DNA of 64,000 bases. Source: Escherichia coli. GTDB taxonomy: Bacteria; Pseudomonadota; Gammaproteobacteria; Enterobacterales; Enterobacteriaceae. This document shows positions 1 to 59,747 of the stretch, piece after piece. The stretch lies in NCBI RefSeq assembly GCF_001677475.2, contig NZ_CP015229.1; one strand, written 5' to 3'. The number at the start of each line of letters is the position of its first letter. Positions within the stretch are counted from its first letter, which is position 1. The notes beneath the pieces were generated by a model that saw nothing but the letters and a program-made list of their open reading frames with translations, was not told the DNA's origin and made no database searches. The position numbers and the translations under genes were made by a program.

Positions 1-1175
1 GGCCATCCACCCAGTGCCTCGCCGGCAAGCGCCTGGCCTATGTCGAACCAAACTCCGCAGCAGCGCAATGCACGCTGGATATTTTAAGTGAAACGCCGCT
101 GGAAGTGGTTTATAGCCCAACGTTCTCCGCGCTGCCTCCCGCGCATTACGACATGATGTTGTTAGGCATCGCGGTGACCTTCCGCGAGCCGCTAACAATG
201 CAACATGAGCGATTAGCGAAAGCGGTATCGATGACCGATTTCCTGATGCTGGCACTTCCTTGCCATGCACAAGTCAATGCTGAAAAACTCAAGCAAGATG
301 GTATCGGCGCGTGTCTGCTGAAACCATTAACACCTACGCGCCTGTTACCTGCCCTGACGGAATTTTGTCATCACAAACAAAACACGCTTTTGCCTGTAAC
401 CGATGAAAGTAAGCTGGCAATGACAGTCATGGCGGTTGATGACAACCCCGCTAACCTGAAACTTATCGGCGCATTGCTGGAAGATATGGTGCAACATGTG
501 GAACTTTGCGATAGCGGGCATCAGGCGGTTGAACGGGCGAAACAGATGCCGTTCGATTTGATCTTAATGGATATTCAAATGCCGGACATGGATGGCATCC
601 GGGCCTGCGAGCTCATCCACCAGCTCCCCCATCAGCAACAAACGCCGGTTATCGCGGTAACGGCGCATGCAATGGCCGGGCAAAAAGAGAAGCTGCTTGG
701 CGCAGGGATGAGCGATTATCTGGCGAAACCGATTGAAGAAGAGCGATTGCATAATTTGCTGTTGCGCTACAAGCCTGGCAGCGGCATTTCCTCTCGCGTC
801 GTGACGCCTGAAGTCAACGAAATTGTGGTGAACCCGAATGCAACCCTCGACTGGCAACTGGCACTACGCCAGGCAGCAGGAAAAACCGATTTAGCGCGCG
901 ATATGCTGCAAATGTTACTCGATTTCCTGCCTGAAGTTCGCAACAAAGTTGAGGAACAGCTGGTTGGAGAAAACCCGGAAGGCCTGGTTGATTTGATTCA
1001 TAAACTGCATGGCAGTTGCGGCTATAGCGGTGTGCCGCGTATGAAGAATCTCTGCCAGCTGATCGAACAACAGCTACGTAGCGGTACTAAAGAAGAAGAT
1101 TTGGAGCCGGAGCTGCTGGAACTGTTAGACGAGATGGATAATGTAGCGCGCGAAGCCAGCAAAATTCTCGGGTAA
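1..1175 (+). CDS. barA: Hybrid sensor histidine kinase BarA, C-terminal part (receiver + HPt domains); 5' end lies upstream of window
   Basis: ORF 105..1175 is in frame to the window start; contains receiver-domain motif ([14 protein letters not shown]...[13 protein letters not shown]) and C-terminal HPt-like segment; matches E. coli BarA C-terminus from memory. Confidence 0.9.
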
Positions 1176-1405: not shown

Positions 1406-2746
1406 TTAACGCACCATGCACGGACGCTTGTTATCGAACGTCCAGCCAGGAATCAGATACTGCATTCCCATTGCATCGTCACGCGCGCCAAGCCCGTGTT
1501 TCTGATACAGCTCGTGGGCTTTCATCACCTGATCCATATCGATTTCTACGCCCAATCCTGGTTTTTGCGGCACCTGTACCAGCCCGCCTTTGATCTCAAA
1601 CGGTTCTTTGGTCAGACGCTGATTGCCTTCCTGCCAGATCCAGTGCGTATCAATAGCAGTAATTTTACCCGGTGCAGCAGCGGCTACATGGGTAAACATC
1701 GCCAGGGAAATATCGAAGTGGTTGTTAGAGTGTGAACCCCAGGTCAGGCCAAATTCATGGCACATTTGCGCCACACGTACCGAACCTTGCATCGTCCAGA
1801 AATGCGGATCCGCCAGCGGGATATCAACGGATTGTAACGAGAGCGTATGGCCCATCTGCCGCCAGTCGGTGGCGATCATATTGGTTGCGGTCGGCAGGCC
1901 AGTCGCGCGACGGAACTCAGCCATCACTTCACGCCCGGAGAAACCTTGCTCCGCACCACACGGATCTTCTGCATAAGCCAGCGAACCTTTCAGGTATTTA
2001 CCAATTTTAATCGCTTCGTTCAGCGACCAGGCACCGTTAGGATCGAGCGTAATACGCGCCTGTGGGAAGCGTTGCGCCAGTGCCACAATAGATTCTGCTT
2101 CTTCTTCCCCGGCCAGTACACCGCCCTTCAGTTTGAAATCGTTGAAGCCATATTTTTCATATGCTGCTTCCGCCAGGCGCACCACCGCATCCGGCGTCAT
2201 CGCTTCTTCGTGACGCAGGCGATACCAGTCACATTTATCATCCGGCTGGCTTTGATACGGCAGCGGTGTGGCTTTGCGATTACCGACGAAGAACAGATAA
2301 CCGAGCATTTCGACTTCGCTACGCTGTTGACCATCGCCCAGCAGCGATGCCACGTTAACCCCCAGATGCTGCCCCAGCAGATCCAGCATTGCCGCTTCTA
2401 TCCCGGTAACTACATGAATAGTGGTACGCAAATCAAATGTCTGCAAACCGCGCCCGCCGGCATCACGATCGGCAAATGTATTACGCACCAGCGTCAGAAC
2501 GTTTTTGTATTCACCTAGCGTTTTACCCACCACCAGCGGAATCGCATCTTCCAGCGTTTTACGGATTTTCTCGCCGCCGGGAATTTCCCCTACGCCGGTG
2601 TGACCGGAATTATCTTTGATAATCACAATATTACGCGTGAAGAACGGTGCGTGTGCACCACTCAGATTCATCAGCATACTGTCATGACCCGCCACCGGGA
2701 TGACCTGCATTTCAGTAACAACAGGCGTCGTAAATTGAGAACTCAT
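1406..2746 (-). CDS. gudD: D-glucarate dehydratase (enolase superfamily), 446 aa
   Basis: ORF 1406..2770; protein from [25 protein letters not shown] matches E. coli GudD; start set at internal ATG giving 446 aa. Confidence 0.93.
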
Positions 2747-2766
2747 GTTTATGTCCTTATTCAGAA

Positions 2767-4107
2767 TCAATGACGGCCGAAAACGGGACGTTTACGGTCA
2801 AAGGTCCAGCCGGGGATCAGGTACTGCATCGGACCTGCGTCGTTACGCGCACCGCCAAGCAGACGTTTATAGGCTTCATGCGCCTTTTGTACCTGCTCCC
2901 AGTCCAGTTCCACGCCCAGACCGGGCGCATCAGGAACGGCAATTTTTCCGTTTTTAATCTCCAGCGGATTTTTGGTCAGGCGACAATCTCCCTCCTGCCA
3001 AATCCAGTGGGTATCGATAGCGGTAGGATTACCCGGTGCCGCCGCACCCACATGGGTAAACATCGCCAGAGAGATATCAAAGTGGTTATTGGAATGGCAG
3101 CCCCAGGTCAGCCCCCAGTCGTCGCAAAGCTGCGCTACGCGGACTGCACCGGAAAGCGTCCAGAAGTGCGGGTCGGCAAGTGGAATATCTACCGCATTGA
3201 GCATCACCGCATGGCCCATTTCGCGCCAGTTGGTGGCGATCATGTTAGTCGCGACGGGCAAGCCGGTCGCCCGTCGAAACTCCGCCATCACTTCACGTCC
3301 GGAGAAACCCTGTTCTGCGCCACATGGATCTTCGGCATAGGTGAGAACATCATTCAGCCCTTTGCACAGATAAATGGCTTCATCAAGCAGCCATGCACCG
3401 TTGGGATCAACGGTAATTCGCGCATCCGGGAAGAGTTTCTTCAATGCACGAACAGTGTCGATTTCTTGCTCGCCAGGTAACACTCCGCCCTTAAGTTTGA
3501 AATCTTTAAAGCCATAGCGATCCTGTGAGGCTTCCGCCAGACGTACAACGGCTTCGCTGTTCATCGCTTTCTGATGCCGCAATTGATACCACTCATGGTT
3601 GCCCGGCGTATTTTCCAGATAAGGAAGATCGGTTTTGGTCCGATCACCGATATAAAACAGATAACCGAGGACGGTAATAGCATCGCGTTGCTTGCCTGGC
3701 CCTAACAGTTCGCAGACCGGAACATTCAGCGCCTTACCTAGCAGGTCAAGCAAGGCGGCTTCCAGCGCCGCCACGGCATTAACGCGCAATTCAAAAGTCC
3801 AGGCACCTTTGCCGAAGGTATCAAAATCGGCTGCCTGATTACCTTTATGCACCTGCTGGACCACTTTATTCAGGCGCGCAACTTCCTGGCCCAGAACCAT
3901 CGGAATAGCATCGACAAGCGTCTGATAAATCACCTCTCCGCCTGGCGCTTCACCAATGCCGGAATGTCCGGCATTATCGGTGAGTACCACGATATTGCGG
4001 GTGAAATATGCGTCATGTGCACCACCAATATTAAGCAACATGCTATCGTGCCCGGCGACCGGAATGACTTTCATATCAGTAATAACAGGACTGGATTGTG
4101 TCGTCAT
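2767..4107 (-). CDS. gudX: Glucarate dehydratase-related protein (GudD paralog), 446 aa
   Basis: ORF 2767..4107; strong similarity to adjacent GudD along whole length (e.g. [38 protein letters not shown] motifs); 4-nt overlap with gudD start. Confidence 0.92.
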
Positions 4108-4108
4108 C

Positions 4109-5461
4109 TTATTGCCCCGCGACAGGTTTCAGCTCGATACGCTTGATATCGCCCACCAGCACCAGGTAGCTCAGTACCGCGATTAAGGCATGAACACCAA
4201 CATAAATCAGCGCCCCATTAAAGGAGCCAGTCGTGCCAACGATATAACCAATTGCGATTGGCGTGACGATGCCAGAAATGTTACCGAACATGTTGAACAG
4301 GCCACCGGAAAGACCGCTGATCTCTTTTGGCGCGGTATCTGCCATTACTGCCCAACCTAGCGCCCCGATGCCCTTACCGAAGAAGGCCAGCGCCATAAAG
4401 CCGATGATCATCCACTCAACATTGACGTAGTTGCAGAACACCATCACCATCGACAGCAACATGCCCATTACGATCGGTGTTTTACGCGCAATGTTCAGCG
4501 ATCCCGTGCGGCGCATCAGCCAGTCGGAAATAATCCCACCCAGCACACCGCCGATAAAACCGCAAACCGCCGGAACGGAAGCCACAAAGCCCGCTTTCAG
4601 AATCGACATCCCACGCGCCTGCACCAGATAAACCGGAAACCAGGTAATGAAAAAGTAAGTCAGGGCGTTGATACAGTACTGACCGATATAAACGCCGATC
4701 ATCATCCGTGACCCGAGCAGCTGTTTGATCTGCCCCCACTTCACGCTGAACGGCACTTTAACTTTGGTATTTTGCTGATCCATATTGATCAGCGCGCCAC
4801 CCGCGGCGATGTACTCCAACTCTTTCTGATTTACACCCGGATGTTGATTTGGCTCGTGGATGACTTTCAACCAGATAAAGCTGATGACAATGCCCAGACC
4901 GCCCATAAAGAAGAAGACGTGTGACCAGCCCACTTCATGCGTCAGCCAGCCCATAATCGGCGCGAAGATCACCGTTGCGAAGTATTGAGCGGAGTTAAAA
5001 ATCGACACCGCCGTTCCCCTTTCCTGCGCCGGAAACCAGGCCGCAACAATGCGACTGTTGCCGGGGAAAGATGGCGCTTCAGCAAGCCCGACCAGGAAGC
5101 GCAGCGTAAACAGGGCAACGATAATGCCGAATCCACTAAAGATATCGACGAAGCCTTGCAGCAAGGTAAACATCGACCAGATAAAGATCGACCAGAAGTA
5201 GACGCGTTTTGAACCAAAACGATCCAGCAACCAGCCACCTGGGATCTGCCCGATAACATAAGCCCATGAGAAGGCAGAGAACACATAGCCCATTCCCACG
5301 GGATCAAGGCCGATATCTTTGGCCATTTCCGAACCGGCAATAGAAAGCGTAGCGCGGTCGCCGTAGTTGAAGGATGTGACGATAAACAACATCACCACTA
5401 TCCAGTAACGAGCATTCGTGCGTTTTTCCACACTGCTCGCAGCCTGACTTAAAGAACTCAT
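4109..5461 (-). CDS. gudP: MFS transporter for D-glucarate/galactarate, 450 aa
   Basis: ORF 4109..5461; hydrophobic multi-TM protein, MFS signature; position upstream of gudXD. Confidence 0.92.
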
Positions 5462-6361: not shown

Positions 6362-7144
6362 TTAGGAACTTATCTCTCCATCCTGACCCGATGGCGCACT
6401 GAACTCAACCCTTTCATTTTCAGGAAGCAGACCCCGCCAGCCAAATTGTGATAACGCCTGCATCCAGGTGCCGTCCAGGCCCGCGTGAATAGTCAACGGC
6501 TCGCCAGTAAAAGGATGCGTCAATGACAACTGACTGGCATGCAGCATTAACCGCTGAAGGCCAAAATGTTCAGCACCGCTGCGATTCTGGCGTAAATCAC
6601 CATGTTTGCTGTCGCCAATAATCGGGTGGCGCAAATGGGCAAGATGGCGACGGAGCTGGTGCTTGCGTCCGGTTTTCGGCTCCAGTTCCACCAGGCCGTA
6701 GCGCGTGGTCGGATAACGTCCGGTCGCTACCGGCATTTCTACGGTCGCCAGACCGCGATAATGCGTCACTGCTGGCTGTGGGCCTTTATCTTCGCGGGCA
6801 AATTTATCAGCGATTTTGTCCAGTTCTTCCACCAGTGGATAATCCAGAACTGCTTCTTCCATCAACCAGCCGCGCACAATCGCATGGTAACGTTTCTGGA
6901 TTTGGTGCTGTTCAAACTGTTGTGCCAGCAGCCGTCCGGCCTCGCTGGATAATCCCATCAACAACACACCAGAAGTTGGTCGGTCCAGACGATGAGCAGT
7001 AAACACATGCTGGCCTATCTGGTCACGCACGGTTTGCATGACCACTACTTTCTCGTCGCGATCCAGCCAGCTGCGGTGAACCAGCCAGCCGGAGGGTTTA
7101 TTTACCGCAACCAGCCATTCATCCTGATAGAGTATTTCCAGCAT
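6362..7144 (-). CDS. truC: tRNA pseudouridine(65) synthase, 260 aa
   Basis: ORF 6362..7144; RluA-family motif [12 protein letters not shown]. Confidence 0.92.
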
Positions 7145-7473
7145 TAGCTCGCATCATCCGCAAAAAGAGCATCCAGTTTTTCCAGCTCAGCCAGAATAAG
7201 CGCGCGTTGCGGGTGGTCCGTCGCCAGCGCCATTTCATAATAGGGAGCAACGGCAAAAGCGCCCGGTAACGGCTGGTTGTTTTCTAACAAATCGTGCATT
7301 CGCGGGATCAGCACCCACTGCAACCACTCCAGTGGTTCCATGGTGTCCATAAAGAACGGTTGGGTACTATTAAATTGATGCGGCTGGGGTTCATCGTTTC
7401 GCCAGTGCTGATGTTCACGCAGTAACGCTTCAAGCGCCTGCAACTGGAGACGAACGCGGTCATGAGTGGTCAT
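7144..7473 (-). CDS. yqcC: DUF446 family protein, 109 aa
   Basis: ORF 7144..7473; 1-nt overlap with truC start; matches E. coli YqcC size and context. Confidence 0.85.
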   Translation of the reverse strand: MTTHDRVRLQLQALEALLREHQHWRNDEPQPHQFNSTQPFFMDTMEPLEWLQWVLIPRMHDLLENNQPLPGAFAVAPYYEMALATDHPQRALILAELEKLDALFADDAS

Positions 7474-7516
7474 AAAGCAACCTCAATAAGAAAAACTGCC
7501 GCGAAGGATAGCAGGA

Positions 7517-7551
7517 ATAAAAAAAGGGAGCACTGTATTCACAGTGCTCCC
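7517..7551 (-). terminator. Rho-independent terminator of csrB
   Basis: Minus-strand hairpin GGGAGCACUGU..ACAGUGCUCCC followed by UUUUUUUAUU. Confidence 0.85.
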
Positions 7552-7884
7552 GGTTCGTTTCGCAGCATTCCAGCTACTTTTGTTGCTCCCTGCTCATCCT
7601 TGACAACTTTTCCTCTGGCCTTGCGGCCAATCGTTCGTCCTGAACTATTGCTTCCTGCTCACACCACCCCGATGTGATACTTCATCCTGAAGTGTCCCTG
7701 GCCTTCCTGACCCACCGAATCATCCTGACCGGTTCTCATTCTCCATCCTGGAGGTGTCCTTTAACGCGTCCTGCGTCATCCTCTTCGCTTCGTCCAGAAG
7801 CCTTTCCCTGAAACACCATCCTGGTGTGTCCTTCAGAAGTGTCATCATCCTGATGTTCACTTCGTTGTCTGACTCCCTGTCGAC
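7517..7884 (-). ncRNA. csrB: CsrB small RNA (CsrA-sequestering), about 368 nt
   Basis: Minus strand begins GTCGACAGGGAGTCAGACAACGAAG and carries about 20 repeated CAGGA(U/A)G / AGGA motifs (seen as catcctg/tcctg on plus strand); ends with hairpin gggagcactgt-gaat-acagtgctccc plus U7. Confidence 0.9.
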
Positions 7885-8057
7885 GAAGATAGAATCGTCT
7901 TTTTCGCGAAGTCTTACAAGGCGCTTACAGACAATGCCTTAAGGAAAATTTCATATGAAAGTTAAGAATTGACAAGCAATATATTGATTTTAAATGAGAA
8001 TAACGATTCTTATCTTTTTAAGTATTCGCTTATTTCCTGGCGATCTCCTACAGAGTC

Positions 8058-8075
8058 TGTAAGAGATCTCTCACA
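8058..8075. promoter_or_regulatory. 18-bp near-perfect inverted repeat upstream of csrB; candidate UvrY response-regulator binding site
   Basis: tgtaagagatctctcaca (half sites tgtaagaga / tgtgagaga), about 175-190 bp upstream of the csrB 5' end. Confidence 0.6.
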
Positions 8076-8094
8076 ACCAGATGGGGTATTTGGA

Positions 8095-8640
8095 TTACAG
8101 AAGAGGCTTAAGTTGATTAAGGAATTCCGCAAGATTTGAGGCTAAATGCGCCCGTTTACGTGTTCCCAGCGTCTCTTTGCACACTTCACCGGAGAGATTA
8201 CACACCGAGATGACCTCTAACTCTTCTTCCAGTGTCGCGATAAATAGCGTGGGCGGCAGTTTTAGCCTTTTCTGAGTCACCAGATGACCAATCTGATTTT
8301 CCTGCACCCGACGGAAGTCGTCTTCACTCCAGGTTTGCAGCAATGTCAGTTTGATATCGCCAAACTGCGCATGCATATCCCCGGCAAACTGAGTCGTATA
8401 AAAGGTATGAATTGTGGGTTGTATCACAATATCAAAAGCGCGTTCAACCGCGTTTACATTTTGTTCCCCGGTAAACGGCTGGGGTTGCCAGTATACGGCG
8501 TCTTCGGTGGTTGAAATAATGCACGGTGAAGGAACGCCGTACAGTTCCTCACTCAACGGCCAGCTTTTATGCTCTTCATGCCACGCATCGCAGTAGCGTG
8601 CAGTAAAATCTGTCAGGGCTTGTGCGGTCAAATCGTCCAC
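8095..8640 (-). CDS. syd: SecY-interacting protein Syd, 181 aa
   Basis: ORF 8095..8640; matches E. coli Syd length/context. Confidence 0.9.
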
Positions 8641-26053: not shown

Positions 26054-26259
26054 ACTTCCTGAGCCGGAACGAAAAGTTTTATCGGAATGCGTGTTCTGGT
26101 GAACTTTTGGCTTACGGTTGTGATGTTGTGTTGTTGTGTTTGCAATTGGTCTGCGATTCAGACCATGGTAGCAAAGCTACCTTTTTTCACTTCCTGTACA
26201 TTTACCCTGTCTGTCCATAGTGATTAATGTAGCACCGCCTAATTGCGGTGCTTTTTTTT
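26054..26259 (+). ncRNA. gcvB: GcvB small RNA, about 206 nt
   Basis: ACTTCCTGAGCCGGAACGAAAAGTTTTATCGG 5' end, G/U-rich tgttgtgttgttgtgtttg region, terminal hairpin gcaccgcc-taatt-gcggtgc plus T8. Confidence 0.9.
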
Positions 26260-29253: not shown

Positions 29254-29360
29254 GCCTGATGCGCTACGCTTATCAGGCCTACATAACTCCTGCAATATTT
29301 TGGATTTGCATGAGTTGTAGGCCGGATAAGGCGTTCACGCCGCATCCGGCATGAACCACG
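29254..29360. repeat. BIME: two REP units in opposite orientation
   Basis: gcctgatgcgctacgcttatcaggcctac (29254..29282) and gtaggccggataaggcgttcacgccgcatccggca (29326..29360). Confidence 0.8.
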
Positions 29361-30744: not shown

Positions 30745-30821
<77 letters not shown>

Positions 30822-30854
30822 ATTAAAATTTGATGAAGTAAAGCAGTACGGTGA

Positions 30855-30931
<77 letters not shown>

Positions 30932-30965
30932 ATCAAAATTTGATGAAGTAAAAGCAGTACGGTGA

Positions 30966-31042
<77 letters not shown>

Positions 31043-59461: not shown

Positions 59462-59550
59462 AAAAAAAAACCTGCGCATCCGCGCAGGTTGGTGCAAGAG
59501 ACAGGGTACGAAGAGCGTACCGAATAATCTCACCAATCAATACCTCTGGG
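59462..59550 (-). ncRNA. omrA: OmrA (RygA) small RNA
   Basis: Minus strand reads CCCAGAGGTATTGATTGGTGAGATTATTCGGTACGCTCTTCGTACCCTGTCTCTTGCACCAACCTGCGCGGATGCGCAGGTTTTTTTTT, including terminator hairpin. Confidence 0.9.
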
Positions 59551-59664: not shown

Positions 59665-59747
59665 AAAAAAAAACCTGCGCATCTGCGCAGGCTGGTGTAA
59701 TTCATGTGCTCAACCCGAAGTTGACTTCACCTATCAATACCTCTGGG
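59665..59747 (-). ncRNA. omrB: OmrB (RygB) small RNA
   Basis: Minus strand reads CCCAGAGGTATTGATAGGTGAAGTCAACTTCGGGTTGAGCACATGAATTACACCAGCCTGCGCAGATGCGCAGGTTTTTTTTT; shares 5' and 3' ends with omrA. Confidence 0.9.

Follow-up and report, generated by a model that had tools for sequence, protein, structure and literature searches.

Small RNAs that regulate CsrA have been recognised by a common set of sequence features, i.e. an intergenic location, GGA motifs, a rho-independent terminator, the placement of GGA motifs in loops or free regions, and an upstream site, and the csrB-syd context was found to be conserved (Kulkarni et al. 2006, PMC1488887). For E. coli csrB, Zere et al. (2015, PMC4682653) reported exactly the sequence TGTGAGAGATCTCTTACA, centred at -183/-182, at the mid-point of the distal UvrY ChIP-exo peak. 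In their DNase I footprint UvrY-P protected no site but the upstream one of csrB, and the in vivo binding of UvrY was BarA-dependent; BarA-dependent UvrY-P occupancy and activation were reported for K-12 and Salmonella. A putative IHF site was described between the distal UvrY site and the csrB promoter, together with a dependence on IHF, whereas csrC, whose repeat is far less symmetric (TGTGAGACATTGCCGATA), does not need IHF (PMC4682653).

We analysed a window of 64,000 nucleotides of E. coli DNA that begins within barA and carries csrB on the minus strand. We are highly confident that this is a canonical enterobacterial csrB locus with a UvrY/IHF control region, and we found no sequence evidence in the window that contradicts this reading. 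We computed the identity of the RNA and of BarA, the placement of the motifs, the terminator, the synteny, and the match of the repeat to the published site together with its conservation; that UvrY-P binds, that this depends on BarA and that IHF is required is known from the literature. The coordinates are collected in Table 1.

Table 1. Features of the csrB locus and its surroundings (positions in the window; negative numbers are relative to the csrB 5' end)
Feature	Position	Strand	Basis
barA, 3' part, cut by the window edge	1..1175	+	NCBIfam NF008318; colinear with MG1655 b2786
yqcC, downstream of csrB	7144..7473	-	ORF list; named in RefSeq E. coli and MG1655
Mechanical ORF (not a gene) opposite the 3' half of csrB and the start of yqcC	7462..7677	+	ORF list
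csrB, 369-nt CsrB sRNA, predicted to sequester CsrA	7516..7884	-	RF00018; alignment to b4408
csrB intrinsic terminator (stem 7526-7551, T7 tract 7519-7525)	7519..7551	-	Terminator scan
Mechanical ORF (not a gene) opposite the 5' half of csrB and its promoter	7754..7942	+	ORF list
Putative -10 element GATTCT (-12 to -7)	7891..7896	-	Conservation and spacing
Putative -35 element TTGTAA (-35 to -30)	7914..7919	-	Conservation and spacing, 17 nt from the putative -10
IHF core match AATCAATATATTG (-105 to -93)	7977..7989	-	Read from sequence
Extra half-site TGTAGGAGA	8044..8052	-	Read from sequence; described in PMC4682653
UvrY-P site, 18-bp inverted repeat TGTGAGAGATCTCTTACA	8058..8075	-	Match to published footprint (PMC4682653)
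syd, upstream of csrB	8095..8640	-	NCBIfam NF003439, SecY-interacting protein, E 3e-84

The CsrB RNA and the reading frames opposite to it

The first-pass annotation of this DNA had placed CsrB on the minus strand, and a covariance-model scan of the whole window against Rfam bears this out. The CsrB model RF00018 matches 7516-7875 (-) with 380.4 bits against a gathering score of 71, covering model positions 1-356 of 356 with an E-value of 1e-110, and the RNA is a member of the CsrB/RsmB family. The Rfam model begins nine bases inside the annotated 5' end of csrB, and the ends in Table 1 come from the alignment to the annotated MG1655 gene b4408. The boundary of 7517 proposed earlier is one base off, and the proposed length of about 368 nt agrees with the 369 nt found here; 8075, then given as the upper bound of the region, marks the far end of the upstream palindrome. 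The gene is intergenic, with yqcC (start at 7473) on one side and syd (stop at 8095) on the other. The RefSeq/PGAP records of E. coli have no feature over csrB, while the curated MG1655 record has the gene; with csrB unannotated, only mechanical ORFs are visible on the gene track.

About 20 GGA repeats had been claimed for this RNA, and we counted 22 in the 369 nt, together with 14 AGGA, 7 ARGGA and 9 CAGGA[ACU]G motifs. The background across the window is 4.5 GGA per 369 nt per strand on average, and the maximum outside csrB on either strand of the 64 kb is 13-14. Dinucleotide shuffles of csrB give a mean of 15.2 GGA (standard deviation 2.5, maximum 23), so that its G/A-rich composition accounts for part of the excess. 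The placement of the GGA motifs is more telling than their count. Eleven of them lie in hairpin loops of the Rfam consensus structure, 9 in single-stranded linkers and 2 in stems, leaving 20 of the 22 unpaired, and the single-sequence minimum free energy fold has 9 fully within hairpin loops. The csrB homologues of 59 species carry 21-27 GGA each.

The structure itself is well supported. The minimum free energy of csrB is -118.8 kcal/mol (z = -4.0 against shuffles), and compensatory double changes are present at 19 of the 70 consensus pairs in an alignment of csrB from 35 Enterobacteriaceae species, with individual pairs in four different hairpins showing such changes in 11 to 14 sequences. 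The loop GGAs are invariant across these 35 species while the hairpin stems covary, and the alignment has many 1-2 nt indels. The terminator, described as strong in the first-pass annotation, deserves the word: it has an 11-bp stem with 7 G-C pairs and a 4-nt loop followed by T7, and the stem is essentially unchanged in the 35 species. All five sequence features given by Kulkarni et al. (2006, PMC1488887) for CsrA-regulating sRNAs are found at this csrB, including a conserved 18-bp upstream site of the csrB type. At 99% identity to the K-12 RNA, the transcript is expected to bind and sequester CsrA and to be turned over through CsrD and RNase E.

Two ORFs on the plus strand over csrB, at 7462-7677 and 7754-7942, have start codons and run for 71 and 62 codons without a stop, which is what can be said for one or both being real small proteins. 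We regard this as extremely improbable. Neither ORF has an NCBIfam match, and no CDS is annotated over csrB in MG1655 or in RefSeq E. coli. Over the 35 species the stop-free stretches on the antisense strand shift in frame, place and length, with one species lacking any of at least 40 codons, and the 1-2 nt indels of the csrB alignment also speak against a conserved frame. A GGA-rich sense strand makes the antisense strand TCC-rich and poor in stops, and open frames are hence expected from composition. The earlier view that these ORFs are artefacts is upheld, as they match no family, lie antisense to an RNA verified by its model, and are not conserved as stop-free stretches.

The UvrY site and the csrB control region

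A near-palindrome of the UvrY type had been noticed about 180 bp upstream of csrB, and it is indeed the site detected by ChIP-exo and DNase I footprinting. The 18-mer, which reads tgtaagagatctctcaca on the plus strand and pairs at 8 of 9 positions, spans -191 to -174 with its centre at -183/-182 relative to the csrB 5' end, and has the same sequence and the same position as the UvrY-P footprint of Zere et al. 2015 (PMC4682653). Its palindromy does not exceed chance, with 12 18-mers having 8 of 9 pairs in the 64-kb window, and what counts is therefore that it equals the published footprint and that it is conserved. Of 59 Enterobacteriaceae species, 49 have the 18-mer unchanged, and the others differ from it by no more than 2 mismatches. 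Its position is -181 to -185 in 57 of these species; in the remaining two it is at -232, where the csrB alignments begin at query position 54 and the 5' ends were extrapolated. Within E. coli, 4,378 of 5,422 genomes match a 50-nt query containing the repeat with an identity of 99% or more.

The extra half-site TGTAGGAGA lies 5 bp downstream of the 18-bp repeat and forms a second inverted repeat with its promoter-proximal arm, an arrangement in which the window has the repeat near -183/-182 and the half-site expected of a UvrY/SirA promoter. The motif TGT[AG][AG]GA is retained at this half-site in the 59 species. Based on these matches, csrB in the window is likely to be occupied and activated by UvrY-P in a BarA-dependent manner.

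The predicted IHF site AATCAATATATTG is a perfect match to the IHF consensus WATCAANNNNTTR and lies between the distal UvrY site and the promoter, as described for csrB (PMC4682653). The consensus is exact at the same position in about 20 of 59 species, and the conserved columns are ATCAA and TT. Over the 260 nt upstream of csrB, conservation in 57 species peaks at the repeat, the half-site, the ATCAA and TT of the IHF site, TTGTAAGAC and GATTCTAT.

A sigma-70 consensus scan of 7400-8200 returned no promoter, which fits what is expected of an activator-dependent promoter, and the -10 and -35 elements of csrB were consequently assigned by conservation and spacing alone. The putative -10 element belongs to a block at -12 to -5 (GATTCTAT) that is at least 95% conserved in 57 species; GATTCT agrees with TATAAT at 3 of 6 positions, a weak match. 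The putative -35 hexamer TTGTAA is included in the block TTGTAAGAC (7911-7919, -35 to -27), whose positions are 80-95% or more conserved in the 57 species.

The block TTGTAAGAC could also be more than a -35 element, namely a low-affinity UvrY half-site that UvrY bound at the distal repeat touches after the IHF bend, which would explain the promoter-proximal ChIP-exo signal. It shares 7 of its 9 positions with one half of the repeat (TGTAAGACT compared with TGTAAGAGA), its conservation extends three bases past the -35 hexamer, and it lies within the zone of UvrY crosslinking from -56 to +25 (PMC4682653). However, the protection by UvrY-P from DNase I was confined to the upstream site, and Zere et al. 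favour an indirect crosslinking through RNA polymerase, the repeat not being preserved at the downstream sites (PMC4682653). The MG1655 csrC promoter shows the same promoter-proximal crosslinking, yet it has no TGTAAG near its -35, and we looked there for a second UvrY site similar to TGTAAGA and found none. The conservation of a -35 region, moreover, needs no second explanation. We thus consider a role of TTGTAAGAC as a UvrY half-site besides that of a -35 element to be unlikely, and read the block as the -35 region of csrB. A second TGTAAG, which is not conserved, is present at -45 to -40, 11 bp upstream of TTGTAAGAC.

Several other features of the spacer were observed. Between the IHF core and the -35 element there is an AT-rich palindrome, AACTTTCATATGAAATTT (7946-7963, -79 to -62), in which 8 of 9 positions pair; it is just 60-80% conserved across species, and no known regulator could be assigned to it. 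The inverted repeat GACGA-N8-TCGTC at 7882-7899 covers the putative -10 element and the csrB start and was scanned as a plus-strand terminator-like site, and it is probably incidental because there is no upstream plus-strand gene to terminate. Only 19 nt separate the syd stop codon (8095-8097) from the UvrY repeat, so that the csrB control region occupies the entire 210-nt spacer between syd and csrB. The terminator scan gave no terminator-like site between the syd stop and the repeat, and any read-through from syd would hence traverse the UvrY and IHF sites.

Linkage of barA and csrB

The BarA C-terminus was said to lie at the start of the window, and the BarA equivalog model NF008318 matches there at 3-1172 (+), over profile positions 530-917 of 920 with an E-value of 4e-168. 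The score of 561 bits is below the whole-protein cut-off of 890 bits because the window holds just the last 390 of the 918 barA codons, which encode the last part of the kinase core together with the receiver and Hpt domains, and we count the protein as BarA. This C-terminus is 100% identical in protein to that of Escherichia sp. E1V33, with about 95% identity in DNA. From the end of the barA stop codon at 1175 it is 6,340 nt to the csrB 3' end and about 6.9 kb to the UvrY site, and the genes in between are gudD, gudX, gudP, yqcA, truC and yqcC, as in MG1655. The yqcC start codon is 42 nt beyond the csrB 3' end. No uvrY was found in the window, where the receiver domain of BarA is the sole weak match (29% identity); in MG1655 uvrY is about 930 kb from csrB, and csrC is unlinked to the csrB/barA locus.

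The sample for the linkage consists of 80 barA loci, one genome per species and all from Enterobacteriaceae, in which csrB was identified by nhmmer and GGA density; the count was restricted to the 62 loci having at least 9 kb downstream of barA. In 59 of these 62, csrB is on the opposite strand at 1.6-8.9 kb from barA (median 7.4 kb). The 10-kb flank ends short of the expected csrB position in the other three (L010, L072 and L079). The L010 sequence ends directly after yqcC, and in L079 about 5.7 kb separate barA from the start of gudD, pointing to an insertion. What varies between barA and yqcA is the operon gudD-gudX-gudP (1406-5461 in the window). Six of the 62 species lack it (L007, L021, L025, L061, L065 and L073), among them E. 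albertii, a Pluralibacter sp., Yokenella regensburgei and some Citrobacter; there yqcA-truC-yqcC-csrB comes directly after barA, and the gap between barA and csrB is 1.6-3.3 kb.

The first-pass annotation pointed to a close linkage between the sensor and its target. The closeness itself stands but probably carries no special meaning, since the neighbouring genes are linked equally well and uvrY lies outside the window. The closeness of barA and csrB might be functionally selected, through co-inheritance or shared effects of the chromosomal neighbourhood, and it is kept in nearly all of the species counted, including the six without gudDXP. But yqcA, truC, yqcC, syd and queF are beside barA in 57-60 of the 62 loci, as often as csrB, and nothing is specific to the pair. 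As these protein genes are retained at the rate of csrB, the conserved unit is the backbone block barA-(gudDXP)-yqcA-truC-yqcC-csrB-syd-queF and not the sensor and its target. The signal also runs through UvrY, which is encoded far off, and csrC, a second strong UvrY target, is not linked to barA either in MG1655. No barA, gacS or varS adjoins the csrB or rsm genes in Vibrio, Pseudomonas, Shewanella, Legionella and Acinetobacter, as judged from immediate neighbours only (PMC1488887). Since BarA works in trans, by way of a diffusible regulator whose gene lies elsewhere, the position at 6.3 kb reflects an inherited order rather than a cis arrangement. A selected linkage is, in our judgement, very unlikely. 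The linkage is real but most likely a passive synteny, an inherited gene order, as sampled within Enterobacteriaceae, where gene order is generally stable and the synteny sample leaves room for weak selection on the linkage.

Some other RNAs were detected in the window by Rfam, all at gathering level. They are GcvB at 26054-26259 (+) with 199 bits, the pair OmrA/OmrB at 59463-59550 (-) and 59666-59747 (-) with 97 and 86 bits, three identical tandem tRNA genes at 30745-31039 (+) with 61 bits each, and ES036/CssrF at 29275-29317 (-) with 46.6 bits against 37.6. The spacing of GcvB, OmrA/OmrB, the tRNA genes and ES036/CssrF from csrB presumably agrees with the K-12 map.

A model of csrB control and comparison with known systems

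In the model that we propose, BarA would autophosphorylate and hand the phosphate to UvrY, and UvrY-P would then occupy the 18-bp repeat (8058-8075) and probably also the half-site at 8044-8052. An IHF bend at about -100 (7977-7989) may carry the bound UvrY-P to the promoter, a looping geometry that we infer. The weak promoter, apparently of the sigma-70 type (7891-7919), would thus be activated from a distance, with the transcript starting at 7884. The 369-nt transcript, running from 7884 to 7516, would stop at the strong intrinsic terminator, and some 20 accessible GGA motifs in its loops and linkers would bind CsrA dimers and titrate CsrA off its mRNA targets.

csrB, its GGA repeats, the UvrY repeat, the half-site and the IHF requirement are already published for E. 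coli and Salmonella. A mutational analysis of the repeat and the IHF site of Salmonella csrB is reported to have been carried out by Martinez et al. (J Bacteriol 2014). The window reproduces the published csrB features almost base for base, and its significance goes little beyond a correct annotation. Its value is that two spurious ORFs are flagged, that a functional RNA missing from RefSeq/PGAP is marked, and that the neighbourhood of barA and csrB is documented as a stable Enterobacteriaceae backbone in which gudDXP alone varies. A real promoter-proximal UvrY half-site in TTGTAAGAC, reached via the IHF bend, or, weaker still, a selected linkage of barA and csrB, seems quite improbable to us. 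If true, such a half-site would give a direct-contact account of the unexplained second ChIP-exo crosslink near -35.

The closest relative among the described systems is csrB of MG1655 (b4408), which has the same length of 369 nt, the same strand, the same flanks yqcC and syd and a similar distance of about 6.3 kb from barA. The two sequences are about 99% identical over 711 nt with no internal gaps, and they do not differ in the 18-bp repeat at -183/-182, in the extra half-site, in the -35/-10 region or in the architecture of the terminator. The RNA in the window differs from that of MG1655 by four substitutions, i.e. A for C at +52, C for U at +93, C for U at +248 and A for G at +340. The A at +340 turns a G-U pair of the MG1655 terminator stem into an A-U pair, and it is also present in 34 other species. 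Five substitutions are found in the spacer (-114, -99, -96, -92 and -87), of which two hit the NNNN stretch of the IHF core, where any base is allowed. The substitutions remove no GGA and no base of the IHF consensus. The exact csrB of the window is absent from 5,426 complete E. coli genomes, with 99.5% as the best identity, and the first 12 kb of the window are at most 98.8% identical to any complete E. coli genome. The GTDB species representatives in our locus set are 90-95% identical. The window thus comes from a chromosome of the E. coli/Shigella group whose lineage is missing from these collections.

The csrB of Salmonella enterica, which depends on SirA, shares the yqcC-csrB-syd context and has the identical 18-bp repeat at the same distance (L017 and L018; PMC4682653), with barA at about 7.5 kb from csrB. 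Its RNA is more diverged, with nhmmer scores of about 250 against about 350 for Escherichia species, and the sequence separating the repeat from the extra half-site is not that of the window. CsrC of E. coli, RsmB of Pectobacterium and RsmX/Y/Z of Pseudomonas are more distant, being other genes at other loci with other sequences, and the assignment to RF00018 by Rfam rules out that the window RNA is one of them. Nevertheless, they follow the same principle of titrating CsrA or RsmA, and they share with csrB the GGAs in loops, a rho-independent terminator and an upstream UvrY/GacA box (PMC1488887).
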